64,000 nucleotides of DNA from Dehalococcoidia bacterium. Lineage in GTDB: Bacteria > Chloroflexota > Dehalococcoidia > Lucifugimonadales > UBA3495. The notes below the pieces were generated by a model. The model was given only the letters and a program-made list of their open reading frames with translations. It searched no databases and was not told the origin of the DNA. The DNA is taken from the NCBI GenBank assembly GCA_034428795.1, contig DAOUHF010000121.1:3680-67679 (forward strand), written 5' to 3'. Below are positions 1-52,972 of the stretch, piece by piece. The position numbers and the translations under genes were made by a program. The first letter of the stretch is position 1. Each line of letters opens with the position of its first letter.

Positions 1-144
1 CGGGCGCTGGGACTAAGGTTCGATCGAATGACCTGTATTGCGACCCCAGTAGTGCTGTACCGCACCAAGAAATCTGTTAAAGGACTTGCAGAGCGGGTCC
101 AGCAGGACTTGGTTGATTTGGAAGCTGAGGGGCTAGATGGCTAG
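1..144 (+). CDS. 3' end of an upstream CDS (partial; RALGLRFDRMTCIATPVVLYRTKK...LEAEGLDG*), function not identifiable
   Basis: Frame open from base 1 to TAG at 142-144, overlapping the ATG at 137 (coupling-type overlap). Confidence 0.55.
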   Translation, partial: RALGLRFDRMTCIATPVVLYRTKKSVKGLAERVQQDLVDLEAEGLDG

Positions 145-1207
145 ACCGGGCCCAAGCGCAGGGAGCGGACCTACAGGCTCACATGGCCAGCTTGCTCTCT
201 CCCTTGATGGGGGAAAGGCGCCATCGGTATTCCGTAGCCTTTCTCCCGCACGCCCAACGGTCGTTTGCGAGACTTACTGGAAGTTTGCCGTTGAAAGGCA
301 AGAAGTCTTCTTTCGTAAGTTGAATGGGTGCCCGCCTCCCTGGACCGATGACCCCGTTATCGCGCGGCACAAGTTCACCAACCCCTATCGGGCGGCTGAC
401 CGAGTTAGTCAATACCTGATTCGCCATGTTATCTACGAGGGCGACCCATCCGTTCCAGAGGTCTTTTTTCGCACCATCCTCTTCAAGCTCTTCAACAAGA
501 TAGAAACGTGGGAACTGTTGAAGTCCGAGCTGGGTGAGATTTCCTGGGGAGGTTATTCCTTCGACCAGTTCGATACCGTCTTGGCCGGCGCCCTTGCGTC
601 CAAGACGCGGATATACTCGGCAGCCTACATCATGCCCTCGGGAAATACGGCTTTCGGGTACCGGCGGAAACATCGGAACCACCTCAAGCTGCTTGAGCGC
701 ATGATGGAAGATGAGGTGCCGCACCGGATAGCAGGAGCGAAAAGCATGAGGCAGGGCTTCGAAGTTCTGCGGTCGTACCCGATGATCGGCGATTTCCTCG
801 GGTACCAGTTCATCACCGACCTGAACTACAGTGAGATATGCGACTTCTCAGAGATGGAGTTCGTAGTACCTGGTCCGGGGGCTCGTGACGGGATCCGCAA
901 GTGCTTCAGCGACTTGGGCGGGCTGAGCGAGCCTGACATCATCAGGCTGGTTACTGACCGTCAGGAGTACGAGTTTGAACGGCTGGGGCTGGAGTTCCGC
1001 TCATTGTGGGGGAGGCAACTGCAACTGATCGACTGCCAAAACTTATTTTGCGAAGTGTCCAAGTACGCCCGGGTAAGGCATCCTGACGTCACCGGAGTGA
1101 ATGACCGCTCTCGCATCAAGCAGATTTATCGGGCATCGGGAAACCCCTTGGAATTCTGGTTCCCGCCGAAGTGGGGTATCAATCACTTGCTGCCTAAGAA
1201 TTCATGA
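137..1207 (+). CDS. DNA base hypermodification family protein (aGPT-pyrophosphorylase clade 1 / 5-hmdU DNA kinase helical domain-like)
   Basis: Motifs YWKFAVERQEVFFRK, PPPWTDDPVIARHKFTNPYR, IYSAAYIM, IGDFLGYQF, GPGARDG, IDCQNLFCEVSKY; neighbouring MazG fits the known context. Confidence 0.75.
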   Translation: MARPGPSAGSGPTGSHGQLALSLDGGKAPSVFRSLSPARPTVVCETYWKFAVERQEVFFRKLNGCPPPWTDDPVIARHKFTNPYRAADRVSQYLIRHVIYEGDPSVPEVFFRTILFKLFNKIETWELLKSELGEISWGGYSFDQFDTVLAGALASKTRIYSAAYIMPSGNTAFGYRRKHRNHLKLLERMMEDEVPHRIAGAKSMRQGFEVLRSYPMIGDFLGYQFITDLNYSEICDFSEMEFVVPGPGARDGIRKCFSDLGGLSEPDIIRLVTDRQEYEFERLGLEFRSLWGRQLQLIDCQNLFCEVSKYARVRHPDVTGVNDRSRIKQIYRASGNPLEFWFPPKWGINHLLPKNS

Positions 1208-1268
1208 AGGAGCACTCTACACAATGCGGTCCCAGGTTAGACGATAACTCCAGAGGGAGGAACCCACG

Positions 1269-2114
1269 GTGATTTTGAGTGGTGAAGCAATCCGAGAACG
1301 TCTCAAAGCTGGGCAAATTTTTAAGCAGGCCACTTGGGCTGAAGAGTCGATTATGGAAGCGTCATATGCGCTCAGAATTGCCAACGATGGACTCTTGATT
1401 GATGGCAACTTTTACGACCCCGGAACAACTTTCCGCAAGAATTACATCGAGATAGGACCCGGGAAACTAGCGATTCTTTCAACCATCGAGCGCCTAAACA
1501 TGCCGGGCGATCTCTTGGGAAAAATCGGAATACGGTTTGATCAGACAACGCAAGGGTTGACCGGCTTAATGGGGATACAAGTTGACCCCCTGTTCGGGAG
1601 CGAACAAGACGATGAACGGCTTTTCGTCAGGGTCGCGAATTTGGGTAACGAGTCGATAAGGCTTTTGCCCGGGGACAAAGTCTTTACTTTCGAGGTTCAT
1701 GAAGTAAGGGGAGATGTCCAACCCCCTTCAAGTGGCAAACGGCCTATATGGACTCGCCTGAAACGGCGTCTGGGGAATCAGAACAATGCAAGCTGGACCT
1801 ACATCACACAGGTAGACTATAACCTATCGAACGAAACCCAAAACATCAAAGACTATCTGCAACCTCTTGTTATGTTCGGCGTATTCTTGGTTGCGGTAAC
1901 CATTTTGGGAGTTGCAGTCACCATGATTTTGAGCGTGCGGGACACTCCAGAAGTCATGGTGCCAAATTGGGTTACTGACTGGGCTTGGGCTTTAGCGCTA
2001 TCGACTATAACGTTGGCGACGCTGGCCATAGTTTGGGTGGGATTCATCGCAGGTTGGCGTGCATGGCGTCCGTATCGGGCCAACCAAACAAAGCCAAGAA
2101 AAGAGGCTCGTTGA
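1269..2114 (+). CDS. dCTP deaminase/dUTPase-fold protein with two C-terminal transmembrane helices; catalytic residues appear substituted
   Basis: MILSGEAIRERL start, ASYALRI, GKLAILSTIERLNMP, VDPLFG, ANLGNESIRLLPGD; hydrophobic segments PLVMFGVFLVAVTILGVAVTMILSV and WAWALALSTITLATLAIVWVGFIAGW; GGAGG RBS. Confidence 0.75.
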   Translation: MILSGEAIRERLKAGQIFKQATWAEESIMEASYALRIANDGLLIDGNFYDPGTTFRKNYIEIGPGKLAILSTIERLNMPGDLLGKIGIRFDQTTQGLTGLMGIQVDPLFGSEQDDERLFVRVANLGNESIRLLPGDKVFTFEVHEVRGDVQPPSSGKRPIWTRLKRRLGNQNNASWTYITQVDYNLSNETQNIKDYLQPLVMFGVFLVAVTILGVAVTMILSVRDTPEVMVPNWVTDWAWALALSTITLATLAIVWVGFIAGWRAWRPYRANQTKPRKEAR

Positions 2115-2223
2115 GAGATGTAGCCATTCCGTGTTTCACCAAAGAACTAGTGAGACGGTTCACGTCCTGACTCCGTGAATGTAACCATTCTGAAACGAGG
2201 ATTGACCATATTTTCCTTGAAAC

Positions 2224-3102
2224 TCATTCCACTAACTGAATCGTACCCTGCTCCAAGTCGGCGTAAATCTTCCCCTTTCCATTGGCCTTCACGTGACGCC
2301 AGATGTCGAACCCCGTCATGATCGCCCGCTCCCATTCGCCCTCTGTGCGGACGCTCACTTCCAAGTGAGACGTCATGTCCTTTATTGTGCGCAAGAGGTC
2401 ATAGTTGACGCCTTCAACTCCGTCCAGGAAGTTCTGACGCTCGGCGTAGCTGAACACCATCGCGGAGATTCCCTCTTCAATGACAATGGCCCGGCCGCCA
2501 TCTTCAACTTCATCCACCTTGCGGACGCTCTTTCGTTTGCGTCGCAGCAAGGCTCTCAGCGTTGGGGACCAGCCGAGAATGCTGGCATAGGACAGGTGGC
2601 AAATGTCGTGGAAGCGGTAGCCGTCGTCCTCGTAGCGGTTATCCGTCAGCGGATCTCCGTACTTAGCTCCGTCAATGGTTGTGATGGCTATCCCAGATTC
2701 TTCTTCTATAGAGATGTCCATCTGCCTCGGTAGGCGCTCGGACAGCGGAAAGCCCTCATCAAACAGCTTTCTCGTCCCTTTGTCCGCGCCGGCAGGGTGC
2801 CATCGCCTGCCTGTCTTGCTGAGGTTAAAATCCGCTACCCCTTCCAGCGTCAGCCCGTGCTTGGTCGCAACATTGGACAGATACCAGAGGAGGTCGCCCA
2901 GCTCTTCCTTGACCCGTTCGGGGAACAACTTGTACGAGTCGCCATCCCTGAGCCACTTCTTGTGCTCGCCCAGCAGTTCCCCCACTTCTCCTGCCATTCC
3001 CAAGAGTGGCACCAGGATACTTCGGGGGTCGGTATCGAAGTTCCCCGTTTCCGGCTGCTGGTCTGTCTGATTGGCAAGGCGCTGGTATTCGTTAAGTTCC
3101 AA
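2224..3102 (-). CDS. MazG-like nucleoside triphosphate pyrophosphohydrolase with MazG C-terminal domain
   Basis: LLGMAGEVGELL...KK...EELGDLLWYLSNVA MazG motif; C-terminal PLTDN..DDGYRFHD..H and DEVEDGGRAIVIEEGIS. Confidence 0.85.
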   Translation of the reverse strand: MELNEYQRLANQTDQQPETGNFDTDPRSILVPLLGMAGEVGELLGEHKKWLRDGDSYKLFPERVKEELGDLLWYLSNVATKHGLTLEGVADFNLSKTGRRWHPAGADKGTRKLFDEGFPLSERLPRQMDISIEEESGIAITTIDGAKYGDPLTDNRYEDDGYRFHDICHLSYASILGWSPTLRALLRRKRKSVRKVDEVEDGGRAIVIEEGISAMVFSYAERQNFLDGVEGVNYDLLRTIKDMTSHLEVSVRTEGEWERAIMTGFDIWRHVKANGKGKIYADLEQGTIQLVE

Positions 3103-3268
3103 TTGCCCTTACCTCCAGCCAATCTTCGCATTTCTGGTTGCAGATCCCTCCACGTATTCACATCCACAGTTAGTGTAGAGGACTTCCAGTGGACACAATA
3201 TACAGTATTTGTCAATGTGCAAGTGTCAGTGGCGCGGGTTGATTCTTCCTGAGTTTGCACCTCATAAG

Positions 3269-3596
3269 TCATTGAGCCGGTCCCGGCACGAGATTCCCTA
3301 CAATCTCCCCCAAGTGTTCCAGGGCGGCTCTGAGGTTTTCGAGGACCCCGACGGCAATGCCGACGGACGGGAGGAGGGCGCTCCGTCCTCTATGCTTTCG
3401 TCGCGGAGCCAGAAGATGGTCGAGGTTGGCCTTGTCGCGCTTGCCTGGGTTCTCGTAGGCGAAGCAACGGAAGGTCGTCTCCGTCCCCTCGCCCCTGAGT
3501 CGGTTCTCCGCGTTGCAGCAGGTTACAAAGTCGTCCAAGTCGGCACTGGTAAGGGGGTTGGTCTTTAAGGGGAAAGCGGCGGTTGGTGTAGAAGGA
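3269..3596 (-). pseudogene. Frameshifted 3' fragment of a type I R-M methyltransferase (HsdM C-terminus)
   Basis: Manual translation across frameshifts: FPLKTNPLTSADLDDFVTCCNAENR...RDKANLD / IFWLRDESIEDG / LLPSVGIAVGVLENLRAALEHLGEI, the HsdM tail pattern; begins directly after the tRNA CCA. Confidence 0.75.
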
Positions 3597-3671
3597 TGGT
3601 GGGCCCGGCAGGGATCGAACCTGCCACCAGCCGGTTATGAGCCGGCTGCTCTACCACTGAGCTACGGGCCC
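3597..3671 (-). tRNA. tRNA with CAT anticodon, most likely tRNA-Ile2 (lysidine-modified); encoded CCA
   Basis: Reverse complement GGGCCCGTAGCTCAGTGGTAGAGCAGCCGGCTCATAACCGGCTGGTGGCAGGTTCGATCCCTGCCGGGCCCACCA folds as a cloverleaf. G1-C72 pair excludes fMet; the anticodon arm resembles Ile2 tRNAs. Confidence 0.93.
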
Positions 3672-9617: not shown

Positions 9618-9618
9618 G

Positions 9619-9720
9619 GGTTAGTGGCCAGTGGCTAGTTGTCAGAGGATAATCACCGACCCCAGCGCCAGCCAACTAACCACTATTCACTAACCACTGA
9701 CCACCGGCCACTGACCACCA
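9619..9720. repeat. Inverted pair of heptamer tandem arrays (GGYYAGT x ~4; spacer; ACTRACC x ~6)
   Basis: 9619-9646 ggttagt ggccagt ggctagt tgtcaga; 9675-9720 actaacc actattc actaacc actgacc accggcc actgacc acca. Confidence 0.85.
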
Positions 9721-9732
9721 AAAGGAGACGGC

Positions 9733-10002
9733 ATGGCCAGGTTTCTTGCTACCCACACAGTCTCCGGACTCACCGAAGAGGAATTCCGGGAAAAGCTGGG
9801 GGCTGTCCGCAAATGGCGGCCAGACCGCCGCACCACCATCCTCAAGGTTTACGCCGACACCCAGAACGGCAAGCTGGTCACCGAATGCGAGGCCGCCGAG
9901 CAGGCCCACTTCGAAGACTGGATGAAGATGGTAGGCTGGCCCGCCGAGTCCATCTACGAGATAGACATGGTCTGCCAGGTGGGCAACATCTGGAAGCTGT
10001 AG
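9733..10002 (+). CDS. Small protein, DUF4242/nickel-binding-like
   Basis: AAGGAG RBS; MARFLATH...KVYADTQNGKLVTECEA...H...GWPAESIYEI pattern. Confidence 0.6.
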   Translation: MARFLATHTVSGLTEEEFREKLGAVRKWRPDRRTTILKVYADTQNGKLVTECEAAEQAHFEDWMKMVGWPAESIYEIDMVCQVGNIWKL

Positions 10003-10003
10003 G
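9976..10003 (+). repeat. 28-bp exact direct repeat, left copy (CAGGTGGGCAACATCTGGAAGCTGTAGG), encoding the C-terminus and stop of the 9733 gene
   Basis: Identical copy at 14036-14063. Confidence 0.95.
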
Positions 10004-10014
10004 GGTGGGGCCGT

Positions 10015-11742
10015 TCAGGGCGTTGGATGATTCCACGGGCTCCGATTTATGTTGGAGAGACCCTTGCGAGTCCGCTCTTTGTCGTCCCTCCTTTCGTGTT
10101 CAAACAGGCGATGAAGAGCTTGAGCCTGCCCCGTAGTCTGCCAGGGAGTGCTCCCAACGATCACAGTTCTCCTTGGGCCCGTCTTCACTGATTGCTGTTC
10201 TATGCCGACCCTACCATATCTATCAATTATCAAGCGCAAGGTATGGCCAATCAGTCGTGCGTCTATTTTTTCATCGATGTACTCTTGCGAGAGAACGAGT
10301 CCGTTGGGATAGGTGATACTTAGTTGGTAGGTCTTAGGGAATAAACCGGAGCGCATGATTGCAGATCGCCGTGTTACTGGAGATGAAACGAACACAGCGA
10401 ATGGCCTGAAATCTGCCGCGAAATTTTGGAATGGTACATATTCCGCTTTGTCTCCCGACTCAAGGTCCTCTAAAGTTACGTGGGCTGGAAGCCGGTTCAG
10501 ATACAAAGGAGAATAGGAATCCGTGTAGCTGTAGCAGGCGCCCATGCTGATCCCTACCAATTCCAGGTCCGGAGTTCCAGCGAGCGCGGGTAGCAACTCC
10601 GCGGCGGTGATAACTTTGTCAGAACCGAACCAATTTGACAGGTTCTTACGGAATGACGGTAACCTGGTCGGGCCTCCAAAAAGGATGATCTTATCGACGT
10701 CCTCAGCCATGTGATTCCGGGTTAACTGCCAAACGCACCTGACCGCCCCGGTAATGTTTCTTGAAATTATTTCGCCGATGGGAGGGTCATCTTCACCGTG
10801 ACCGCGTTTCCACAGCGTTTTTGCGCCAATATATGCGTCGTGGGCCGTCGAGAGCGACTTTCTTGTGAAGCCACGCGCTTCCAGCGCTTCTTCCACATCG
10901 TTCAATGTGAGAACGACTTGGCCCAGAGACACGGAGGGATTTACGTCAGTAAGCTGTTCTTTTGCCTTCCGTAGCAGGTCCGGTTGGCCACGATAGCCCT
11001 TTTTCTTGGTCAACCACTCATCCAGGTCGGACCCTCCCAACAAAGGGTGTCCGTCCGCCCCGTAGACTAACATTTGGTCTTCGTCGACCTCTACGAGGGC
11101 GCAGTCGAATGAGCCGCCTCCGAAATCAAAGACCAAATACGAGCCGTGGCCCAGGTCTCCCAGCCTGCGGGCGAGAGTTAGAAATAGAATTGGCTCCTCG
11201 GAAACCCAATCGACGTTCCCCTTGCCAGTAACGTCAGATAGCGCTTGGGCCAATCCTTCCCGGTAAGACAGGTCCGCATGTACCGGGCAACCTGCGCGCC
11301 ATTCAAATTCACCCTCCAAGCGGGCGCGGCGGAATCCCTCAGCCAAGATCCCACGTATCAGTTGCCATACTGGAAATTCGTGACCCCATGCCTGAACACA
11401 ACCATTTTGTGGGCTCCACCAAGTTGGCGGCCATTGCGGGATTTCCTCTTGGGAGTTTCGAACTCCCAGGTGCCATGCTACATAGGCGTCGGTGGACAAG
11501 GCAATTCTCTTGATATTCCTTATCACCAGAGTTCTGTTGTCTTCGTCCTGCAGGGCATCAGCCTCCTCTCCTACGACGACAGAGATTTCGCCGTCTGTCT
11601 CTCGCCGCAAAGCTACGACCGCTGGCATAGTCGTAGTATTCTGGGCGCCGATGAAGCTCGGTTGAGGGGGAAGGTCCTGCTCGGAATCCCAAGTCGAAAT
11701 CCTGACATTGATCGTACCGAAATCTACACCGAGGCCTTGCAT
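10015..11742 (-). CDS. Atypical Hsp70/actin-fold ATPase
   Basis: GVDFGTIN phosphate-1 motif, EEP, LVFDFGGGSFD phosphate-2 motif, LGGSDLD, IILFGGPTRLP; no canonical DnaK substrate-binding domain recognised. Confidence 0.85.
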   Translation of the reverse strand: MQGLGVDFGTINVRISTWDSEQDLPPQPSFIGAQNTTTMPAVVALRRETDGEISVVVGEEADALQDEDNRTLVIRNIKRIALSTDAYVAWHLGVRNSQEEIPQWPPTWWSPQNGCVQAWGHEFPVWQLIRGILAEGFRRARLEGEFEWRAGCPVHADLSYREGLAQALSDVTGKGNVDWVSEEPILFLTLARRLGDLGHGSYLVFDFGGGSFDCALVEVDEDQMLVYGADGHPLLGGSDLDEWLTKKKGYRGQPDLLRKAKEQLTDVNPSVSLGQVVLTLNDVEEALEARGFTRKSLSTAHDAYIGAKTLWKRGHGEDDPPIGEIISRNITGAVRCVWQLTRNHMAEDVDKIILFGGPTRLPSFRKNLSNWFGSDKVITAAELLPALAGTPDLELVGISMGACYSYTDSYSPLYLNRLPAHVTLEDLESGDKAEYVPFQNFAADFRPFAVFVSSPVTRRSAIMRSGLFPKTYQLSITYPNGLVLSQEYIDEKIDARLIGHTLRLIIDRYGRVGIEQQSVKTGPRRTVIVGSTPWQTTGQAQALHRLFEHERRDDKERTRKGLSNINRSPWNHPTP

Positions 11743-13248
11743 TTACTCGCTCTCCGATTGACGTATCACGTTGGCCTTGAGGATCATACGATCACCAAAC
11801 GGTCCCCCGCGAACGATCACGCCCGGAGCTACCGTCAGCACTAAGGTACCGCTGGGAATTTCCCCCGCTGAGTAGTGTAACGCCGGGTCGTATATCACCG
11901 TTTCGCCGACCGTCCCAAGCGTCCCGGCCCCGCCCTCCCGTAGTGCGATTGGTAGACTGTCTATGACATTTTCTAGTCGGGCTTGAGCACTCGTTTCCGA
12001 CTGGTAGGCCCGCTGGAGCGTGTCACCGACAGCGAGCAACATACCCTGGCGGATTTCGAGTCTGGATTCCTCGCGGCCAGAGGCCATTTGAGCACGGAAC
12101 GCTTGCACCTGCTGGCTTAAGCGTTGTTGTTCCCGGCACCTTAGTCTCAACTGATCCTCGTAGTATGTACTCTTCTGTTCTTGGTCCGACCGCTGTTGCT
12201 CCAATCGGCTCTCGTAAGATAAGCGCTGCTGTTCGAGCTGACCCTCGTAGGACAGGCACAGCATTTCTCGTTCCTGCTGATGTTGTCCCAGTTGTGTCTC
12301 ATAGTCCGCGCGCTGCTGTTTCTGATCCAGCCGCTGCTGTTCCAGCCGCTCCTCGTAAAATCTCGACCGCTGCGCGCCCAATTGACCAGATAAAGCCCCC
12401 GCCAGAAACTTGGATAATCCTGTCTCTTCGGTGTGTTGAGACAACCGGCCGAGCAACTCGACGGTCTGCTCAATCAAATGTCTATCGGAATCCGGCCACG
12501 TGCACCCAATCCATCGCATAGAGGCCCGGCTCACCGACTCGAGCCAGCCCGCCGCCACCGTTGGAGGAGTGCTATCTGACGTCAAAATCCCTCGGGCCCC
12601 CCATATCGTCCGGTCTAAGGCCGGCCCGATTGTCTCGGCAGGCCACTTATCGAGAGCGCCGCATACTGCCTTCGTCGGCGAACGCCCCGGTGGAGGTTCA
12701 GCAATCTCGCTTAGTAGCCACCTCTCCCAGTCGGATACCGTAGCTGGTTTCGGTTTCGGCGGCGGTGGCGCCAGGGGTTCCATTGGCACGTCGTCAACAT
12801 CGACGCCGAGGTTGAGACCGATCTCGTTGATCGCGTTTTTCTTGGTTCTGACGGTCTTGAAATACTTTGACCCGCCAGCGGCCACCCTTACCCGTTCCCA
12901 CCAAGAGTTCCATTTCACGGTCTCACCAAAGACATGGGCTTGAAGCTTTCCCTTGATTTCGCTGGCTTTGGCCGTGCCGCCAATATCCGCCAAGGTTGCG
13001 GCAAGGAGTTTAAGAGGCGCATCCTCTACCCAGGGCCGAATCTTATCCGGGCCGTCCCAGATCATCGCCTCAAGGCCGTCGTCCGGAAGCGCCGTCAAAT
13101 GACGGGCCACTGATAAGCTCATCTGGCGGGTTTCGCTGGTCTTGAAATCGACCGTAACGCCGCCGGATTCATCCCGCCCGATGACCCTGCCTACTCCCAA
13201 GCTATTGTGGCGGACAAACGTCCCTGGCTGAATCCTTGTGCTCGTCAT
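11743..13248 (-). CDS. Multidomain protein: GreA-associated-like N-terminal domain, coiled coil, C-terminal GrpE-like domain
   Basis: N-term VRHNSLGVGRV..VTVDF..MSLSVA..L..L and EIKGKL...WNSWWERVR; YExxLEQQR repeats; C-term LGTVGETVIYDPALH..GTLVLTVAPG...RMILKANV. Confidence 0.6.
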   Translation of the reverse strand: MTSTRIQPGTFVRHNSLGVGRVIGRDESGGVTVDFKTSETRQMSLSVARHLTALPDDGLEAMIWDGPDKIRPWVEDAPLKLLAATLADIGGTAKASEIKGKLQAHVFGETVKWNSWWERVRVAAGGSKYFKTVRTKKNAINEIGLNLGVDVDDVPMEPLAPPPPKPKPATVSDWERWLLSEIAEPPPGRSPTKAVCGALDKWPAETIGPALDRTIWGARGILTSDSTPPTVAAGWLESVSRASMRWIGCTWPDSDRHLIEQTVELLGRLSQHTEETGLSKFLAGALSGQLGAQRSRFYEERLEQQRLDQKQQRADYETQLGQHQQEREMLCLSYEGQLEQQRLSYESRLEQQRSDQEQKSTYYEDQLRLRCREQQRLSQQVQAFRAQMASGREESRLEIRQGMLLAVGDTLQRAYQSETSAQARLENVIDSLPIALREGGAGTLGTVGETVIYDPALHYSAGEIPSGTLVLTVAPGVIVRGGPFGDRMILKANVIRQSESE

Positions 13249-13263
13249 TCCACTTCCTGTCTG

Positions 13264-13968
13264 TCAGTAGAGAAGTTCAATTTCCTTGGCCAGCCAGAGC
13301 CGTTCCAACCCTAGCGACTCCAGGGGAACAAGGCGGGCGTAAATTACGGCGTTCTGGACGATGCCCTGTCCGGCCCGAATTCGTGGCGCAAGAAAAGTGT
13401 AACTTAGGTAGTCTATCGCCGATTCATCATCCGCCAACTCGTCAACGTGAACGGTGATCTGAACGGGGTCGGCGTCGCCTATTGCCCTCGTCAGTTGCTC
13501 GAATCCCATGGAATCCCGTCCGATGTTGAATCGCCGCGCCAAATCGGGTTGGGACCGCTCCCGCACCACCCCGGTTATCTCCTCTGCCGACGACCCCAAC
13601 GGATCAATCCTCATCGTCTCTCGCACGAGGTTCCGGCTTTCGCGGACGCGTTTCGTTATTGCGGGGACGATGGAGTCCCTGCCGCCACGCAAGCTTGGCA
13701 AGAGATCGTAGGCGCCTTGGCGACCGCCCGAGATGTTGATTCCGATAGTCGCCCCCCAGCTAGAGGGGCCTGCGTAAGGCGTCCCGCCGCTTTGCCCACC
13801 GGCGGCTGGCTGCGTCTGGCAATCGTGGAGTGGCCAACCGTCGCCGAGTACGTCGAACAACACCCGAGAGCCGCAATCACATGAAAAGAAGAAGATCCTC
13901 TCTCCACAATAGCGGCAATTCAACGGGAAGGTGTTCGTTTTGCAGTGAAGACCATGAATCATAGACAC
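13264..13968 (-). CDS. Hypothetical protein with N-terminal Cys/His cluster (possible Zn finger)
   Basis: CRYCGERIFFFSCDCGSRVLFDVLGDGWPLHDC; first gene of the operon. Confidence 0.7.
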   Translation of the reverse strand: MSMIHGLHCKTNTFPLNCRYCGERIFFFSCDCGSRVLFDVLGDGWPLHDCQTQPAAGGQSGGTPYAGPSSWGATIGINISGGRQGAYDLLPSLRGGRDSIVPAITKRVRESRNLVRETMRIDPLGSSAEEITGVVRERSQPDLARRFNIGRDSMGFEQLTRAIGDADPVQITVHVDELADDESAIDYLSYTFLAPRIRAGQGIVQNAVIYARLVPLESLGLERLWLAKEIELLY

Positions 13969-14035
13969 CGGTTTTCGATCGCGGTCCGAGGGAGGGCATC
14001 ACCTAAACTAACAATTGGGAATATATTGTATCCGA

Positions 14036-14063
14036 CAGGTGGGCAACATCTGGAAGCTGTAGG
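14036..14063 (+). repeat. 28-bp exact direct repeat, right copy
   Basis: Identical to 9976-10003. Confidence 0.95.
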
Positions 14064-14149
14064 CGGCGGGGGCCGAGGCAATCGCTAGCCGGCTGTAGTT
14101 GAGGGTACAAGGTTTCGTCTGAACTGCACGTATCGCGTATCGGGTCAAA

Positions 14150-14722
14150 TTAAGTGGCCAGCACCTCACGCAGGTCATCGAAGAAGATATTCAGCGAAGC
14201 TACATTTTGCCGGGCCCGGAAGAGGCCATCGTACCGACAATATCATCTGCATATTCCGCGCCGTTCAGCAAGGAATCAACCCCTCCTTCTCGAAAAAGCC
14301 TTCTGAGTTGCGTTTTCAAAGATGCGCAATCGCAGCCGGCCGGTATCGGCGGTGTGGTATTTGCTTGGGCAACGGTTCTAATCGCTTCCTGGTCGGCCAG
14401 ATACCAAGCCTCTATGCAGGGGTTTGGAGCCGCAATTACCAAGGGGCCTAAATAACCGTTGGCATTTCGCAGCAGCGCACTCTTGGTTTCCGGTACTCCC
14501 CGGCAGTCGGTATCCTGAGCTGCTACCACCATGTCGTATCCGGCATAACCCGATTTCAGGTAGTCCAAGACATATCTTCGGAATGACCCCTCCATGCTGG
14601 GTTTCCCACCGGTCGCGTTGCGTGTATCGAAATCGATCACTTCTCCGGGAATGATTTGGCTGGCGGCCTTACGTATGAGACTTGTGATGTCCAACGTCCT
14701 CGAGAAACAGCCCTATTCTCAC
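14150..14722 (-). pseudogene. DUF4276-like partner of the ATPase, two frameshifts
   Basis: GTG at 14722 gives MRIGLFLEDVGH, then the frame shifts to ITSLIRKAASQ... (PNPCIEAWYLAD motif). A second shift near 14226 hides the tail LFRARQNVASLNIFFDDLREVLAT* (TAA 14152-14150). Confidence 0.75.
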
Positions 14723-14725
14723 CGG

Positions 14726-15979
14726 TTAGCCACCTAAGTCCCCACGGATAATCCTCTCGTCTAGCGCCGTGTCGATGTCTTCTGGCTTGAACATCGGCGC
14801 CTTCAGCGGGAAGGGAGTGAACTGCGATCGGTGCCCATCGCGGTACGCAACAACCAAATCAGCGTTTTCAAAGTACTTGGGCATCAGTGGAGAATGGGTC
14901 GTAACGAGTAATTGTTGGCTCATCGACCGGGCTCTTTCCGACAATATTTTGGCGGTTAGCTCGATTCTCCGGGGATGGACTCCATTTTCGGGCTCTTCGA
15001 AACCGATAGTAGTATTGTCTTCTTGGGACGACAGGATAGCCAATAAACCCAATACTCTCAGGGTGCCTTCGGAAATGACTCGCGATGAATAAAAAACCTC
15101 GCCCTCAACAATCAACAACTCCACGAACCCTTCGTCGGTGCGTCGGACGTCCAGGCCGGAAACCGCTGGAACGACCTGCCGCAGAGTCTTAGACAGCGCA
15201 TCGAATTGTCTAGGATTCTTGGCTTTCAGATTGAAGAAATAACCCGCCAAATCCTGACCGTTCGGTCCGATCGCCCGCACTTCCTTTAGCGGCGTATTCT
15301 CCCGCATGAGTATTGGATCGAAATAGTAGAAACTCCAGCGGGCCAATTCCTCTTTGAATGCAGTAATATGCGGATAATGCGGCGCGTATAAAGGCTGTGA
15401 GCCGATAGTGTAAGGTAGTCCGACATCGTGCATAGTCGGATGTGCCTGCCCTTCCATTCGTAGCGAGAGTTTGTCACCGGTTCGTTCGAAGAAGGGGTTT
15501 CTACTCTTCCGCTCGCTCCCGTCTTTGTTCAACGCTACGAGCCGCTCGTCAGCCACCCTCAACACCGCAGTCTCCGGCAAAAACTCAATCGCTAGAGAAT
15601 ATCGCAAGTTGAGTTCAGTAACGTGCCTGGTGCTGGAGGTCGTTAGTCCTTCTCGAAGGTCCCTAATTCGTTTCTCCGTTACGTTAACCGCTTGGTCAGA
15701 AAGAGAAACATCAGCGGTTATCCTGAGTTCGAGTTTTGGCTGGTCAAGCGAATGCTGAATGCCGCGTTCGGTGAAGAACGCTTCCACTGGAATTCCGCGG
15801 TGGGCGTCAAAAGCAGTCTTCAGGTCGGGTTGGGTCACCATTGCGCTTAAAAGGCGGAGAGCATCAAACATATTGCTCTTGCCGGAGGCGTTCGGTCCGA
15901 CGAACACAGTGAGTGGACGAAGCGTCAACTTGACGTCGCAAAGCGATTTGTAGCCGGAAATTTCTACTTGGGTAATCAT
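14726..15979 (-). CDS. AAA/ABC-type ATPase (AAA_21/COG4637-like)
   Basis: VFVGPNASGKSN Walker A, ISEGTLRVLGLL signature, IGFEEPENGVHP Walker B, LVTTHSP. Confidence 0.9.
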   Translation of the reverse strand: MITQVEISGYKSLCDVKLTLRPLTVFVGPNASGKSNMFDALRLLSAMVTQPDLKTAFDAHRGIPVEAFFTERGIQHSLDQPKLELRITADVSLSDQAVNVTEKRIRDLREGLTTSSTRHVTELNLRYSLAIEFLPETAVLRVADERLVALNKDGSERKSRNPFFERTGDKLSLRMEGQAHPTMHDVGLPYTIGSQPLYAPHYPHITAFKEELARWSFYYFDPILMRENTPLKEVRAIGPNGQDLAGYFFNLKAKNPRQFDALSKTLRQVVPAVSGLDVRRTDEGFVELLIVEGEVFYSSRVISEGTLRVLGLLAILSSQEDNTTIGFEEPENGVHPRRIELTAKILSERARSMSQQLLVTTHSPLMPKYFENADLVVAYRDGHRSQFTPFPLKAPMFKPEDIDTALDERIIRGDLGG

Positions 15980-16060: not shown

Positions 16061-16585
16061 CTACCCCACCAACCCCCACGCCCCCACGGGCCAGCAGCGC
16101 AGCCAAACTCGGCCTATGATTTGGTCGAACGACACCGGGCCGAAGGCGCGGCTGTCGTCGCTGTTTTGGCGGTTGTCACCCAGGACGAAGACCTCCTCTG
16201 GACCGTTCCACCAGGTCTGTCGCGGCTCGGCGTCTACACCCGGATACCCCAGCGGCGGGGCCATCAGGTACTCCTCTGGCAGCAGCACGTCGTCGGCGTA
16301 GACCCTCCCCCCGGCCATCTTCACTTCTTCGTCGGGAAGGGCCGCGATCCGCTTGATGTAGATTCCTTCGGGCAGACCGGGTCGCCGCAGCACCACCACG
16401 TCGCCCCGTTGGAGATAGTTCCAAGAGAAGACCGGGCGCACCACCAGGACCGACTGTCCGTGTTCCAGCGTGGGGCTCATGCTGTTGCCCTCCACCTTGA
16501 AGCGGGCGGAAAACAGCAGGTTGAGGAAGTTCTGGGCCCAGGAGAGGGGCGGGCCCGTGGGCCGTAGCGAACGTCTGGTAGCCAT
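16061..16585 (-). CDS. lepB: Signal peptidase I
   Basis: VEGNSMSPTL (Ser), RGDVVV, YIKRI (Lys), VFVLGDNRQNSDDSRAFG. Confidence 0.9.
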   Translation of the reverse strand: MATRRSLRPTGPPLSWAQNFLNLLFSARFKVEGNSMSPTLEHGQSVLVVRPVFSWNYLQRGDVVVLRRPGLPEGIYIKRIAALPDEEVKMAGGRVYADDVLLPEEYLMAPPLGYPGVDAEPRQTWWNGPEEVFVLGDNRQNSDDSRAFGPVSFDQIIGRVWLRCWPVGAWGLVG

Positions 16586-16650: not shown

Positions 16651-16701
16651 CCCCCATCCTAACCTTCCCCCATCGGGGGGAAGGGACTTGTTCAGATGTT
16701 C
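16651..16701 (+). repeat. REP-like hairpin element, copy 1
   Basis: CCCCCATCCTAACCTTCCCCCATCGGGGGGAAGGGACTTGTTCAGATGTTC; stem CCTTCCCCC/GGGGGAAGG. Confidence 0.88.
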
Positions 16702-16796
16702 CCTAGACTAACCACCGGCGCTAACCTACAATTCCGGCAGCAACTAGCCGGCAGCAACTAGAAAGAAACATCGACTAACCACCGCAGGAGGCAACG

Positions 16797-17876: not shown

Positions 17877-18259
17877 ATGGGAGAGTTTACTTGGCAGATC
17901 AGCGTCTGGAGCGCCGACCGGAGTGCTTAGAAACGGTGGCCGCGCTGGTTGATACCGGCTCTTCGTATTCAGCGTTTCCCCGGACTATGCTCGAACGTCT
18001 GGGGGTTGTGCCGCGTTTCCTCCTGCCGTTCGAAATGGCCGACGGCAGCATCATCCATAGGGATGTCGGCTTGGCTATGCTGGTGATTAACGACAGCGAG
18101 AGCTCCATGCGCGTCATATTCGGTGATGACGACGCCGAGCCCTTAATCGGCGCCAACGCGCTGCAAGAATTTTTGCTTATGGTAGACCCGGTTGAGGAAC
18201 GGCTGGTTCCGCGGACAGGAAGAATGAAGCCTTTGGGGAGGGGAAAGCCCCCATCCTAA
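17877..18259 (+). pseudogene. Clan AA aspartic protease (retropepsin-like), 1-bp frameshift after codon ~16
   Basis: MGEFTWQISVWSADRS / LETVAALVDTGSSYS...LIGANALQ; collinear with the intact 19396 paralog; its stop lies inside REP copy 2. Confidence 0.8.
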
Positions 18260-18298
18260 CCTTCCTCCATCGGGGGGAGGGGACTTGTTCAGATGTTC
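18248..18298 (+). repeat. REP-like hairpin element, copy 2
   Basis: 49/51 identical to copy 1. Confidence 0.88.
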
Positions 18299-26364: not shown

Positions 26365-26799
26365 ATGAAATACGCTTACTCTTGCAACATTGTTCCCGAC
26401 GAAGAAGAGGGAGAAGGATTCGTAATAAACTTTCCCGATGTGAAAGGAGCGATTACCGGCGCCAAAACGTTTAAGGAATCGCTGGTTAAGGCCGAGGACT
26501 GCCTGCTGGTGGCACTGTGCGCTTACGTTGACTGCAATGAAGATATCCCAATCCCCAGCCCTCCAGGCACGGGTCAGGAACTCATCGCCGTGGAGCCCCT
26601 CCCCGCGGCCAAGCTGGCCCTGTACTCCGCAATGCGGCGGAAGGGCATCACCAAGGCGGAACTATCCGACCGTACCGGCCTCAGCGAACCCACAGTCCGC
26701 AAGCTGCTGATCCCGGACCGCTACTCCCACATCAGCCATGTTACCAGGGCCCTGGACGCCGTAGGCTGCCGCCTGGTGGTGGAAGACTTGGTGGCATGA
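26365..26799 (+). CDS. hicB: HicB family antitoxin
   Basis: GFVINFPDVKGAITG..F.E...AEDCL, AAKLALY.AMRRKGITKAEL HTH. Confidence 0.9.
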   Translation: MKYAYSCNIVPDEEEGEGFVINFPDVKGAITGAKTFKESLVKAEDCLLVALCAYVDCNEDIPIPSPPGTGQELIAVEPLPAAKLALYSAMRRKGITKAELSDRTGLSEPTVRKLLIPDRYSHISHVTRALDAVGCRLVVEDLVA

Positions 26800-26845
26800 C
26801 GGCGGCAGTGCGGGACACCCACAGCCTACGGGGGCGAGGTAAGCG

Positions 26846-27496
26846 ATGCGCGACGTAATTGGGCGCTACAGATTCAAAGAGGAGCAGCACCGCGAGATGG
26901 CGAAGTATGGCATGTTGCCCAAGTCATACGATGCTGGAAATGTGGACGATTCGACCCACAGGTTCACCGTCGACGAGTTCGTGCGGATGGCGGAAATAGG
27001 CATCCTGGATCCGGATGACCGGGTGGAGCTCATCGACGGGGTGATAGTGGAAATCGCGCCTGTCGGCAGACCGCATGGAAATCGGGTAAGCGACGTTGCC
27101 AGAGCCTTTTGGGAGCACGTGCCAAAGAGTGTGCGAGTGTACATTGGTTCAACAATTCGCCTTGACGACAGAATCGGGCCGCAGCCCGACCTCGTGCTCC
27201 TTAATCCACAAGCGTCGGCGGACGAAGAAACCGTCCCCCGACCAGAAGACATATTACTTATCGTTGAAGTATCGGCTTCGACCCTCCGAACCGACAGGGG
27301 CGCCAAGGCGAGGCGATACGCCCAGAACGGTATCCCCGAGTTGTGGATTTTCGTCTTGGCGACCGAGCAAATCGAGGTCTGCCGTCAGCCCACTCCGGAA
27401 GGCTACGCTGAAGTACGGCGATTCAGCCGTGGCGACACGCTGACCATACAGGCTCTGCCCGGCATCAAGATTTCGATGGATGAGCTGCTGGCCTGA
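26846..27496 (+). CDS. Uma2/DUF820 family endonuclease-like protein
   Basis: HRFTVDEFVRMAEIGIL..DDRVELIDG, PQPDL, LLIVEVS, YAQNGIPELW. Confidence 0.9.
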   Translation: MRDVIGRYRFKEEQHREMAKYGMLPKSYDAGNVDDSTHRFTVDEFVRMAEIGILDPDDRVELIDGVIVEIAPVGRPHGNRVSDVARAFWEHVPKSVRVYIGSTIRLDDRIGPQPDLVLLNPQASADEETVPRPEDILLIVEVSASTLRTDRGAKARRYAQNGIPELWIFVLATEQIEVCRQPTPEGYAEVRRFSRGDTLTIQALPGIKISMDELLA

Positions 27497-27518
27497 GCAA
27501 CAAATGAGGGGCAATATC

Positions 27519-28538
27519 ATGCTGTTGGAACCTCTGATTTCAGTGATCGAAACGCTCAAGAAGCGTATCGCCGTTCACGGAGCGTCTCTACGCGAAAACG
27601 AGACTCGCACGCGAATGGCGTTGATAGACCCGCTGTTGCAGGCCCTTGGCTGGGACATTGCTGACCCAGCGATGGTACTGCCAGAGTATTCCGTTTCCAA
27701 AGGAAGGGTAGACTACGCTTTGCTTGCTCCAAGCGGCAAACCTTCCACTGTGCTGGAGGCCAAAAGACTCACCGAGGGATTGGAAAATCACAGCACTCAG
27801 ATGGTTGCTTATGCCTTGGAGGATGGTGTTGCTTATGCCGGGCTTACTGACGGTGATCGATGGCATATCTACGACGTATTTAAACCCGTCCCCCTTTCAG
27901 ACAAGCGAATACTGGATATTTCCATCTCCAGCACCTCGGCCCATGAGACAGCTCTGAAACTCCTGCTGCTCTGGCGGCCAAACCTAGCGTCGGGGCTACC
28001 GGTAGCGGCCAGCGAGCCGATTTTGTCCGCGCGGTTGGAACCTGCGTCAACCCAGGCATTTCAGTCGGTGGATACGCCATCAACCCCGTCTCAGACGAGA
28101 CCTTCTACACCCTCTTTGCAAACTCCCATTTCAGTTGAAGCGGGTTGGAACTCTCTCGTAGACGTCACCTACCAGCCAGGTGATAAAAAGCCGACTGGTA
28201 TCAGGTTCTCAGGGGCCGATTTGAAGGACATCAAGAGCTGGGCAGATGTGTGGTTCGAAGTTTGTGAGTGGCTGACTCGCGATGAAAAGTTGACTGCCGC
28301 AAATTGCCCAGTGCCAAGCTCGAGAGGCAAAGGTGTAAGGGAGCTTGTGAATACCACAGGTCAACATCCACCATCAAGCAAAAATCCAAACGGAAATGAA
28401 TTCGCTCAGTCAAGGAAGACTTCAACGGGTCTCTTTGTTGAGACCAACTATGCTCCAAAAGATTTGATCGGCAACGCGAAATTCCTGCTTGATAGACTAA
28501 GTATCCCTGTCGAAACCGTGGAACTGCGATTCGCCTGA
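27519..28538 (+). CDS. Stand-alone HsdR_N-like PD-(D/E)XK nuclease with unrelated C-terminal domain
   Basis: ENETRTRMALIDPLLQALGWD, GRVDYAL..VLEAK, AGLTDGDRWHIY. Confidence 0.8.
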   Translation: MLLEPLISVIETLKKRIAVHGASLRENETRTRMALIDPLLQALGWDIADPAMVLPEYSVSKGRVDYALLAPSGKPSTVLEAKRLTEGLENHSTQMVAYALEDGVAYAGLTDGDRWHIYDVFKPVPLSDKRILDISISSTSAHETALKLLLLWRPNLASGLPVAASEPILSARLEPASTQAFQSVDTPSTPSQTRPSTPSLQTPISVEAGWNSLVDVTYQPGDKKPTGIRFSGADLKDIKSWADVWFEVCEWLTRDEKLTAANCPVPSSRGKGVRELVNTTGQHPPSSKNPNGNEFAQSRKTSTGLFVETNYAPKDLIGNAKFLLDRLSIPVETVELRFA

Positions 28539-37396: not shown

Positions 37397-39916
37397 ATGA
37401 ACGAAGCTACAGCGCGGCTAAAGATTAACAGGCTGCTGGAGAGGGCCGGTTGGCGCTTCTTCCCGGAAGCGGCTGGGCCCGCCAACATCCGCCTTGAGCA
37501 GGGCGTCGAGATCAAGCCCTCCGACCTCGACGGGCTGGGCGACGACTTCGAGAATGCCGGCAGGGGGTTCGTCGATTACCTCCTTCTGGACGTCCGGGGA
37601 TTTCCGCTCTTGGTGTTGGAGGCCAAGTCCGAGGGGAAGCAGCCTCTGGCCGGGAAGGAGCAGGCACGCCGCTACGCCCGTTCTCAAAACTGCCGCTTCG
37701 TTATTCTCTCCAACGGGGTCCTGCACTACTTCTGGGACCTGGAGCGGGGCAATCCCTACATCGTCACTTCGTTTCCGACGCCGGAGTCGGTTACCGGCTA
37801 TAGCAAGGTCACGCCGGACCCCAAGCGCCTGGTTGAAGAACAGATCCAGGACGATTACATCGTTCAGACCCAGCGGCCCGGCTATGCCTCTGAAGCGGCA
37901 TGGAAGAACGAGGTTGAGCGGCACGGTTTCATCCAAGCCAACAACCTGCGCTTTCTGCGGACATACCAACTCCAGGCAGTTCACGCGTTGCAGCAAGCGG
38001 TGAAAGACCGCAACGACCGCTTTCTGTTCGAAATGGCCACAGGCACCGGTAAGACCCTCACCGCCGCAGCCGTCATCAAGCTGTTCCTCCGCTCCGGTAA
38101 TGCCTCGCGTGTGTTGTTCCTCGTGGACCGTCTTGAGCTTGAAGAGCAAGCCCGGAAGGTGTTTGCGGCCATTCTTTCGGCAGACTACACAACGGTAATT
38201 TACAAAGAAAAGCGCGACGATTGGCGTTCGGCGGAAATAGTGGTCACTACCGTCCAGTCGCTGCTGTTCAACAACAAATACCAGTCCCTTTTCTCTCCCA
38301 CCGACTTTGATCTCGTAATCTCCGATGAGGCCCACCGGTCCATCAACGGCAATGCCCGCTCCGTGTTTGAATATTTTGTCGGTTACAAGCTGGGTCTTAC
38401 CGCTACCCCCCGAGACTACCTGCGAGCATTCAGCAATACCGGCCGCAACGTCCGCGATCCTCGTGAGGCCGAGCGGAGGCTGTTGCTTGACACCTATCGC
38501 ACTTTTGGGTGTGAGAGCGGGCAGCCCACGTTCAGATACACGCTGGTTGACGGTGTGAAGGACGGCTATCTGATCAATCCTACTGTGGTAGACGCCCGGA
38601 CCGAAGTGACCACCCAACTGCTGGCAGAGGAGGGCTTTGTCGTTTCCTTCACTGACGACACCGGGGATGAGCACGAAGAAACTTTCAAGCAGCGGGAATT
38701 CGAGAAGCGGTTCTTTTCCGATGCAACTAACCAGGTCTTTTGCAAAACCTTCCTGGAGAATGCGCTGCGCGATCCCGTCAGCTCCGAAATCGGCAAATCG
38801 ATAATCTTCGCCGTGAGCCAAAACCACGCGGCGCGGCTGACGCAGACCCTCAATGAAATGGCCGACGTCATGTTTCCAGGCAAGTACCGGTCGGACTTCG
38901 CCGTGCAAGTCACCTCTCAGGTGCCGGCTGCCCAGCAGTTCACTATCAATTTCGCCAACAACACCCTGATGGGTTCAGGCAACATCCTCCCCTCTTATCG
39001 GACCAGCAAGGCAAGGGTCTGTGTTACCGTCGGTATGATGACCACCGGCTACGACTGCACCGACATCCTGAACCTTGGCCTTCTCCGGCCCATCTTCTCA
39101 CCGACGGACTTCGTTCAGATGAAGGGCAGGGGCACCCGAAGGCACAACTTCCTCGATCAGCTTACCGACCCCGTCATCGCGGCGGGTGTGGCCCAGCCGA
39201 ACAAGAAGGCGTTCAAACTCTTCGGCTTTTTCGGGAACTGCGAATACTTCGAGACAGAGTTCAACTACGACGAGATTCTAGAACTGCCCAGATCCCAACC
39301 GGTTGAGAACCCCGGAGACGGTCCGTCGTCGGCTTCCAGCTACGAACACCTTGGCGCGGACATACTTTCGAGCATCAAGGAAGAGACTATCGGCAACCAG
39401 GGGATGAGGATCGACCGGATGTTGTTTGACCGGTTCGCGGACACCGTGCGCGGAGACGACGCCATCAAAGAGGCCGTCGAGGTCGGGAACTGGGACCGTG
39501 TCCTCGACTATGTACACCGAGAGGTCTTTGACAAGCCGGAAGAATTTTACAATTTGGAAAAGTTGAGGAGGGCCGCCGAAGTGGACCGCCGCCTCAGCTT
39601 GCGGGAAATAATGGAACGGGTCTTCGGCCTGATCCCGCGTTTCAAGTCTAAAGACGAACTGCTTGAAGAGGAATTCTCCAAATTCGTCGCCGGCCACCAA
39701 CCGGAACGGCCCAACTCGGTCCCGGCGATCAAGACCTACTTCAAAGCCTACGCCACCAACGGTTACCTGCGCGGCATCATCGACCAGCGCCGGTTCGCAG
39801 CGCTGGCCACGAACCCAGTGTTCAGCCGCGCCGATTTTAGCGCGGTGCCGGACAGATACCGCCGGTTGGTCCCCGAGTACATCAAGGACTATGTGTCCTT
39901 GAACCAGTTTGTCTGA
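37397..39916 (+). CDS. hsdR: Type I-like restriction endonuclease/helicase R subunit
   Basis: FVDYLL..VLEAK nuclease motif, MATGTGKT, DEAH, GLTATP, TGYD, QMKGRGTR. Confidence 0.9.
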   Translation: MNEATARLKINRLLERAGWRFFPEAAGPANIRLEQGVEIKPSDLDGLGDDFENAGRGFVDYLLLDVRGFPLLVLEAKSEGKQPLAGKEQARRYARSQNCRFVILSNGVLHYFWDLERGNPYIVTSFPTPESVTGYSKVTPDPKRLVEEQIQDDYIVQTQRPGYASEAAWKNEVERHGFIQANNLRFLRTYQLQAVHALQQAVKDRNDRFLFEMATGTGKTLTAAAVIKLFLRSGNASRVLFLVDRLELEEQARKVFAAILSADYTTVIYKEKRDDWRSAEIVVTTVQSLLFNNKYQSLFSPTDFDLVISDEAHRSINGNARSVFEYFVGYKLGLTATPRDYLRAFSNTGRNVRDPREAERRLLLDTYRTFGCESGQPTFRYTLVDGVKDGYLINPTVVDARTEVTTQLLAEEGFVVSFTDDTGDEHEETFKQREFEKRFFSDATNQVFCKTFLENALRDPVSSEIGKSIIFAVSQNHAARLTQTLNEMADVMFPGKYRSDFAVQVTSQVPAAQQFTINFANNTLMGSGNILPSYRTSKARVCVTVGMMTTGYDCTDILNLGLLRPIFSPTDFVQMKGRGTRRHNFLDQLTDPVIAAGVAQPNKKAFKLFGFFGNCEYFETEFNYDEILELPRSQPVENPGDGPSSASSYEHLGADILSSIKEETIGNQGMRIDRMLFDRFADTVRGDDAIKEAVEVGNWDRVLDYVHREVFDKPEEFYNLEKLRRAAEVDRRLSLREIMERVFGLIPRFKSKDELLEEEFSKFVAGHQPERPNSVPAIKTYFKAYATNGYLRGIIDQRRFAALATNPVFSRADFSAVPDRYRRLVPEYIKDYVSLNQFV

Positions 39917-40228: not shown

Positions 40229-40243
40229 TCAAGAGAAGCACGA

Positions 40244-52944: not shown

Positions 52945-52972
52945 TTGCCGACTCGGCGAAAGAGAGATAGTC

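Follow-up and report, generated by a model that had tools for sequence, protein, structure and literature searches.

The 64,000-nucleotide stretch analyzed here (hereafter the window; contig DAOUHF010000121.1) comes from an uncultured lineage of Dehalococcoidia that is known only from metagenome-assembled genomes (MAGs). In this group of Dehalococcoidia, the gap between a small conserved core gene encoding an 89-aa protein (9733..10002, plus strand) and the convergent signal peptidase I gene (16061..16585, minus strand; Pfam Peptidase_S26, 7.9e-31), which bounds this variable stretch on the right, is a hotspot for cassettes. In the window, the gap contains an operon coding for Hsp70-like and GrpE-like proteins followed by an AAA-ATPase gene pair, and the last 28 bp of the small gene recur exactly between the two. 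The original prediction took this repeat for the signature of site-specific integration of a 4-kb element that lacks an integrase and restores its target gene. Comparison with the homologous loci of relatives (denoted here by L numbers) supports this reading only weakly; the balance tips, if slightly, toward the stacking of two alternative cassettes through one non-homologous junction that left a 28-bp stub of the gene end.

The 28-bp repeat at the end of the small gene

The repeat, CAGGTGGGCAACATCTGGAAGCTGTAGG, is present in the window in exactly two copies, both on the plus strand (9976..10003 and 14036..14063), as originally described; there is no third copy in the window at up to 3 mismatches, and the expected number is 0 (100 shuffles). 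The first copy consists of the last 27 nt of the small gene, a 270-nt open reading frame (ORF), that is, the last eight codons (QVGNIWKL) and the stop codon, followed by a G. This ORF bears out both the coding content ascribed to the repeat and the intact state of the target gene beside the insertion. We interpret the second copy, at the head of the AAA cassette, as an orphaned remnant of the 3' end of the small gene; in relatives that have the AAA cassette only, the position of copy 2 is the genuine end of the small gene. To the left, the edge of the repeat is abrupt, with 3 of the 10 nt preceding the two copies identical, as expected by chance. To the right, the heptamer GGGGCCG alone recurs behind both copies, shifted by 2 nt (p 0.01-0.04 against random or GC-matched 16-mers). 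On this side, the repeat ends one base past the stop codon of the small gene, which is the point where all alleles of the gap diverge. The GC content at third codon positions (GC3) is 0.57-0.67 in the interval between the repeats vs 0.79-0.86 in the flanking core genes, and the low-GC stretch runs beyond copy 2 to about 16000, an extension absent from the original prediction.

Nothing beyond the bare repeat speaks for an assembly artefact or for a target-site duplication made by a transposase. Ten loci fetched from at least 7 independent assemblies, among them long-read contigs and a Logan assembly, contain both junction 40-mers, which excludes the former; for the latter, there are neither terminal inverted repeats nor a transposase, and target duplications do not usually reach 28 bp. 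This explanation is effectively refuted by the recurrence of the junctions, and its remaining probability is negligible. In assembly L010, copy 2 carries one substitution, which indicates that the stub drifts.

The small protein shows a weak, SCO4226-like match (NCBIfam NF033706, E 0.0066, far under the cutoff). A protein identical to it is present in 38 collection blocks, and among its 134 homologs, all those with a source name are from Dehalococcoidia. The gene differs from those of the sister lineages by 0.7-3% at the nucleotide level; this divergence equals or is below that of the neighboring genes and is uninformative as to a donor origin of the gene in the window. The intergenic region upstream (9618..9732) differs from all close relatives by 33-41%, compared to 1-5% for the neighboring genes, and is composed of short repeated motifs (CTAACCAC / GTGGCTAG-like), some of them inverted.

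Alternative cassettes behind the small gene

At least six states of the gap are found across relatives, with about 12 haplotypes inspected. In L024-L027, the gap is empty and the two genes share 6 nt of overlap; in L004, it consists of a 48-nt spacer only. The AAA cassette alone occupies the gap in L005, L006, L009, and L011, and together with an IS110 element in L008; CxxCxxCC-domain genes and nitroreductase genes are present in L028-L030, and Hsp70 modules in L017, L019/L020, L031/L032, and L037. The alternative, non-homologous cassettes all start directly past the stop codon of the small gene. The gene for the IS110-family transposase (12347..13780 in L008) comes after the AAA cassette and adjoins the signal peptidase gene, not the small gene. 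In L004 (10244..10290), the small gene is directly followed by the sequence GGAAGCTGTAGC TATC GGAAGCTGACGG, which echoes the last 12 nt of the gene in a short tandem and might be a scar of an older cassette loss.

The loci L005, L006, L008, L009, and L011, in which the core genes are ~96% identical to those of the window, contain a single 28-mer, with the sequence from window position 14036 onward joined straight to the small gene; these are precise empty sites for the 4-kb interval. In L004, the entire content of the gap is missing. An empty allele, for which the original prediction proposed to search, thus exists in relatives, and neither of the two outcomes that it named as contrary (universal presence of the interval in relatives, or an assembly artefact) was observed. 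In the tree of seven flanking genes, the window clade is the sister group of L005 and L006, within a group that diverges by 2-4.6% in the flanking genes. The fetched loci of the window clade (at least 7 assemblies) show no polymorphism for the presence or absence of the interval. The expectation of other cargo at the same site is borne out in that the gap holds varied cargo in relatives, and fails in that this cargo comes without repeats: none were found around the cargo of L028-L030, where the alignment scores are at chance level, or at the right edge of the AAA cassette, where a degenerate third repeat is not significant (p about 0.25).

Homologous Hsp70 modules and the position of the seam

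Four lineages (L031/L032, L017, L019/L020, and L037), with small proteins ranging from 99% down to 69% identity to that of the window, have homologous Hsp70 modules at the same spot. No second copy of the gene end is found in any of them, local alignments being at chance; among the compared haplotypes, this copy is confined to the window clade. L031 belongs to the same species group as the window, with flanks that are 91-96% identical at the nucleotide level. Its module is 86.6% identical to window positions 12369..14035, which cover a zinc-ribbon-like protein gene, the N-terminal half of the GrpE-like partner, and the 5' region of the operon, and the blastn homology stops at 14035, the last base ahead of repeat copy 2. 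Past this seam, L031 has a 40-nt spacer and then the stop codon of the signal peptidase gene. The spacer matches the 28-mer at 7 of 28 positions (our own count), a chance level, and is significantly similar to its counterparts in L017 (shuffle p 0.0014) and L019 (0.009). The homology of these spacers implies that the order Hsp70 operon, spacer, signal peptidase gene is an old arrangement. Judging from this alignment, the operon in the window appears to break off within the spacer region, where it is joined to the final 28 nt of a small gene heading an AAA cassette. The four lineages without a second copy and the end of the L031 homology at 14035|14036 do not support the repeat as a signature of site-specific integration. 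A 10-nt match to the repeat in L017 (CAACATCTGG) was considered as a decayed right attachment site (attR) and dropped; it is not conserved in L019 or L031, and the global alignment to attR is at chance.

The Hsp70 modules at this site in distant lineages indicate that their presence is old, and a repeat would allow precise loss. Accordingly, a module bracketed by both repeats could be ancestral, vertically inherited in the window clade and lost repeatedly in relatives through deletion between the repeats. Copy 2, however, is non-coding and yet identical to copy 1 at 28 of 28 positions, and the mismatch that has already appeared within the clade, in L010, shows that it drifts. Furthermore, L017, L019, L031, and L037 share the module without a trace of this copy, the flank tree requires at least two independent precise losses, and the repeat-bracketed arrangement has so far been seen in no lineage outside the window clade. 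We consider this scenario very improbable.

Proposed origin by cassette stacking

The arrangement in the window would be accounted for if the Hsp70-like/GrpE-like(/zinc-ribbon) operon were an old resident allele of the gap, the AAA-ATPase pair were another allele, and the two had been placed in tandem in the window lineage by one recombination event. This event would combine a homologous crossover in the shared flank with a single non-homologous junction at 14035|14036. The left side of the junction would lie in the 5' region of the Hsp70 operon (13969..14035, minus strand), just beyond a -10-like TACAAT (the reverse complement of 14025..14030), with the sequence ...TATCCGA ending at 14035; the right side would lie 28 nt ahead of the end of the small gene on an AAA-type chromosome (CAGGTGG... 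from 14036). Such a process would be homology-facilitated illegitimate recombination or an equivalent unequal exchange. The direct repeat would then be perfect because the complete small gene on the left and its orphaned last 28 nt on the right are orthologous sequences. Two features expected of stacked cassettes, namely alternative cassettes behind a conserved anchor and an orphan 3' fragment of the anchor before the downstream cassette with an abrupt junction, are present. We infer both the mechanism and the direction of the recombination; either cassette may have come second. Once in place, the 28-bp repeat may permit rare, precise loss of the Hsp70 operon.

Several points weigh against stacking. 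A perfect repeat with one copy at the 3' end of a gene, around foreign-looking DNA, is the classic footprint of an integrase, and the GGGGCCG heptamer shared to the right of both copies is not explained by stacking. There is no microhomology at the junction, which is less usual for illegitimate joins, and L031, the nearest unstacked haplotype, is only 87% or 65% identical to the window in the two parts of the module. No example of the immediate precursor, that is, a window-type Hsp70 cassette abutting the signal peptidase gene with no AAA cassette, turned up; an exact-protein look-up of the Hsp70 protein and its 99% cluster gave the window arrangement only. The searchable DNA collections sample this clade thinly.

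The same product could also be obtained, with no need for a dedicated recombinase, if a donor fragment extending from 28 nt before the stop codon of the small gene to the promoter region of the operon had been circularized by chance and inserted by RecA via the 28-bp identity, in a Campbell-type recombination; L031 is compatible with this route as a donor-type allele. The data fit this model and stacking equally. It takes two rare steps, illegitimate circularization and then homologous recombination over 28 bp, vs one for stacking, and we regard it as improbable.

Search for a recombinase, an attachment site, or a donor

If the repeat did originate by site-specific integration, the interval would be akin to a cis-mobilizable element (CIME): a circle with the 28-mer as its attachment site (attP), integrated in the Campbell manner into the 3' end of the small gene by a recombinase acting in trans, with its gene elsewhere in the genome or on a helper element now departed, so that the two 28-mers would be attL and attR. 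We assign this possibility a modest but real share of the probability. It agrees with the exact 28-bp repeats, one of which restores the gene end, with the clean single-copy empty sites in close relatives, and with the foreign-like composition of the interval; the marginal additional similarity to the right of the repeat core would fit an attP, and a recent event would fit the identity of the copies while the surrounding neutral DNA diverges. A precedent from the same class is provided by the ssrA islands of Dehalococcoides, which have 20-bp repeats and, in some cases, no integration module (PMC3146451).

If such an element ever existed, its integrase is missing from all the places searched. 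The original prediction was correct in that the interval encodes no recombinase: its three proteins match no recombinase, no PADLOC defense model, and no phage family of known function (Pfam, NCBIfam, PHROGs, and PADLOC). No recombinase adjoins the small gene in about 12 haplotypes, in which the only transposase-type gene within the gap is the IS110 gene of L008, by the signal peptidase gene. Nor do these haplotypes include a cognate integrase-bearing element at the same site, the hallmark of a CIME, as opposed to the sixteen identified ssrA islands that carry an integration module (PMC3146451). The 10 scanned low-GC3 ORFs of the window include no recombinase and contain restriction-modification, toxin-antitoxin, and nuclease-type domains. 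The integrase that was expected to be linked to the same site elsewhere did not turn up in pattern scans either: the wobble-degenerate 28-mer pattern has no match in IMG/VR and otherwise hits, in the GTDB representatives, two Dehalococcoidia MAGs with a single copy and, in the JGI metagenomes, one 1.5-kb contig, with no attP or integrase context. Likewise, no relative of the Hsp70 family is found in IMG/VR, so that neither the 28-mer nor the Hsp70 protein has an attP-like or viral context.

Other observations run against integration of a CIME-like cassette as well. The four lineages with homologous modules have no attR, and L031 has the ancestral spacer exactly where attR would start; the loci fetched for the window clade are not polymorphic for the interval; and an attP would have to fit into no more than about 106 nt of non-coding DNA. 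By inspection, the 28-mer has no clear dyad symmetry. The site used by integrative mobile elements exploiting Xer (IMEX) is 28 bp long, with two ~11-bp inverted arms around a 6-bp center, at the chromosomal dif; in the present 28-mer, the outer 11-mers agree as inverted repeats at only ~2-3 of 11 positions (by inspection), and the site is the coding end of a gene. Thus, of the features that define integrative elements, the interval has the direct repeats at both borders, with one in the 3' end of the target gene, and the single-copy empty site in relatives, and it lacks three, namely its own recombinase, a cognate integrase-bearing element at the site, and repeats around sibling elements. If an excised circle existed, its junction would read ...TATCCGA, the 28-mer, and GGTGGGGCCGT....

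The Hsp70/GrpE-like operon

The region between the small gene and the seam (10015..13968) is occupied by three intact genes on the minus strand. The gene closest to the small gene (10015..11742), with its stop codon 12 nt from the stop codon of the latter, encodes a 575-aa Hsp70-like ATPase. The nucleotide-binding domain (NBD) is recognizable in residues ~1-380 (Pfam PF00012, 1.3e-10), and the family profile matches DnaK NBD structures in the PDB with an E-value of 1.5e-15. Recognizable similarity ends close to residue 380; for the remaining ~195 aa at the C-terminus, neither Pfam nor the PDB gives a hit at E up to 10, and a canonical Hsp70 substrate-binding domain is not found in the protein. 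The family includes 330 homologs, the best non-self one being 60% identical.

The second gene (11743..13248) encodes a 501-aa partner protein with the recently defined HTH_GRAD domain (PF27167, precomputed Pfam) and a predicted GrpE-like C-terminus. In the AlphaFold model (38 homologs as input, mean pLDDT 83.7), a Tudor-like barrel is followed by a winged helix (HTH_GRAD), a helical domain, a 115-residue helix, and two helices with a small beta domain. The best fold match in the PDB, according to Foldseek, is GrpE of Thermus thermophilus (3a6m_A, E 8.5e-3, prob 1.00, 154 columns); there is no Pfam GrpE match in the protein, and a weak match to the N-terminal extension of long GreA was detected.

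The third gene (13264..13968) encodes a 234-aa protein with a Cys/His-rich N-terminal part that by inspection resembles a zinc ribbon, and a C-terminal part of 116 aa that is conserved in homologous modules and 55% identical to the counterparts in L018 and L023. Its homolog is called as 232 aa in L031 and L036, with 85% identity to L031 over 234 aa; no family or PDB match was found for this protein. A consensus promoter scan detected no full promoter in the 5' region or at the seam, and there are no Rfam matches within 8-18 kb. Given the Hsp70 NBD matches and GrpE as the best fold match of the partner, the operon is predicted to encode a private Hsp70/GrpE-like pair and a small zinc-ribbon-like protein. 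In a search of the literature on the GRAD domain name and on Hsp70-based defense systems, no description of this operon was found.

Compared to L031, the module is a mosaic (window 10033..14035): identity is ~87% to the right of ~12430, that is, across the zinc-ribbon gene and some 280 N-terminal residues of the partner, and 36-73% to the left. The break coincides with the start of the long helix of the partner, which leaves the coiled coil and GrpE-like domain, together with the Hsp70 gene, on the diverged side. This position of the break implies that the Hsp70 and the GrpE-like domain were swapped together and suggests that the Hsp70 and its putative exchange-factor domain are exchanged as one unit. 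The mosaic also indicates that the locus evolves by recombination between alleles.

Outside the hotspot, homologs of the operon are found on a 243-kb contig labeled circular (L021) and in L018 and L023, among transposases and beside genes for Cas3-like, GmrSD, resolvase, anti-Pycsar-like, and PIN/Phd proteins; the operon also travels in such junk-yard or plasmid-like contexts. A role of the operon in conflict appears plausible because the alternative allele of the hotspot is an ATPase defense candidate and because the homologs elsewhere lie near GmrSD, Cas3, and toxin-antitoxin genes and transposases. The full picture, in which the operon would be an uncharacterized anti-phage system with a private chaperone cycle and a swapping Hsp70 plus GrpE-like half, kept as an exchangeable cassette behind a core gene and, in the window lineage, additionally a true cis-mobilizable cassette moved by a recombinase that recognizes the coding end of the gene, looks doubtful as a whole.

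The AAA cassette

The AAA cassette consists of two minus-strand genes. The one next to the seam (14064..14725), weakly similar to RloB (E 0.16), has become a pseudogene: compared to L005 and L008, it has lost 11 nt near 14681 and 1 nt near 14225, and both deletions shift the frame; the intact product is 194 aa long in L005, L008, and L009. Both deletions are common to all 10 loci of the window clade, with no exception. The other gene (14726..15979) encodes a 417-aa, MADS3-like ATPase of the AAA_21/AAA_15 type (Pfam AAA_21, 2.3e-25; PADLOC HEC-01A, 1.6e-62; NCBIfam MAD3, 3.2e-44, under the cutoff). A HEC-01/MADS3-like system needs an intact partner gene beside that of the ATPase; in the window clade, this gene is frameshifted twice. 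Gene calling breaks the ATPase of L035 into two pieces of 309 and 65 aa instead of 417 aa, probably as a result of a frameshift, as judged without an alignment. The displaced AAA cassette seems to be decaying.

Comparison with known systems

The structure described here belongs to a known category, that of cassette hotspots flanked by core genes, and bears a probable displacement scar. Core-gene-flanked defense hotspots have a fixed position between conserved genes and differing defense-type cargo across strains. The present gap shares with them the low GC content and the neighboring hotspots in the same region; it differs from defense hotspots in general in that it spans only a few tens of bases between two convergent genes and in that its cassettes are putative defense genes.

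A close resemblance in layout is to the displacement of Rhs C-termini and to the T6SS (type VI secretion system) effector-immunity arrays in Vibrio cholerae, in which a conserved upstream anchor is followed by alternative, non-homologous downstream cassettes, with no integrase, and the older cassette is pushed downstream with a fragment of the anchor 3' end (PMC5361080). For the orphan immunity genes and displaced toxin tips of the T6SS and Rhs loci, cassette displacement by homology-facilitated illegitimate recombination that leaves a stub has been proposed (PMC5361080). Unlike in those arrays, the anchor here is a small stand-alone gene rather than a toxin core, the stub is only 28 nt long, the cassettes are a Hsp70/GrpE-like operon and an AAA-ATPase pair, and the host is an uncultured member of the Dehalococcoidia, for which the mechanism is a proposed one.

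With CIMEs and the ssrA islands of Dehalococcoides, members of the same class, the interval shares direct repeats of the 3' end of a single-copy gene that bracket an island (PMC3146451). The ssrA islands are arrayed in tandem, and the arrays include members that bear an integrase (DsiB serine recombinase); each island border has a 20-bp repeat, which is adjoined by a conserved motif; sixteen identified islands carry an integration module and some lack one (PMC3146451). In contrast, the hotspot described here has a single pair of repeats, none of its haplotypes carries an integrase, and the homologous cassettes are free of repeats.

The cargo, as modeled, would work like a DnaK/GrpE pair minus the substrate-binding domain and the J protein. 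The resemblance consists in an Hsp70 NBD gene next to a gene for a long-helix protein with a predicted GrpE-like C-terminal domain. Unlike DnaK-GrpE, the pair has no canonical substrate-binding domain and no detected J-domain protein, the partner contains Tudor-like and winged-helix domains, identity to housekeeping DnaK is limited to NBD motifs, and the genes lie in a variable gap, not in a dnaK operon.

Other variable regions in the neighborhood

A second variable, low-GC island (137..3568) is located next to tRNA-Met (3597..3671, minus strand) and includes HMUDK_hel (5-hydroxymethyldeoxyuridine DNA kinase-like), DCD-like, and MazG_C proteins, according to Pfam labels precomputed for the near-identical locus L001 rather than scanned from the ORFs of the window. 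At the same position, relatives have an AAA_16 protein (L004), FRG and PIN proteins (L005), or GmrSD and transposase fragments (L009). In L006 (4538..6722), a PLDc_2 nuclease and an N6_N4 methyltransferase are encoded between the CoA-transferase and PfkB genes.

To the right of the signal peptidase gene, a 37-nt sequence, CCCCCATCCTAACCTTCC.CCATCGGGGGGA.GGGAC, is found upstream of both GFO_IDH_MocA paralogs (16651..16687 and 18248..18284; 2 mismatches, 0 expected by chance), and a 14-mer, CCGGCAGCAACTAG, is repeated in tandem at 16734..16761. Three further low-GC3 stretches, all without a recombinase, encode a HicB-like/HTH protein, a Uma2 nuclease, and an HSDR_N protein (26365..28538), the R subunit and a fused M/S subunit of a type I restriction-modification system (37397..42612), and a NucS_C-like protein (52937..54061).

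Implications

A perfect direct repeat at the 3' end of a gene can be a scar of allele stacking rather than an attachment site, which calls for caution in the identification of genomic islands; the two readings can be told apart only by comparing haplotypes. The Hsp70/GrpE-like operon may be more interesting than the repeat: it is widespread (about 330 homologs), unnamed, and recognized by no defense catalog. Together with the operon, the most useful by-product of this analysis is the haplotype series. The hotspot is compact and well delimited, with a natural series of empty, single, and stacked states, and could serve for the study of the exchange of defense-type genes in uncultured Dehalococcoidia, a group without genetics.

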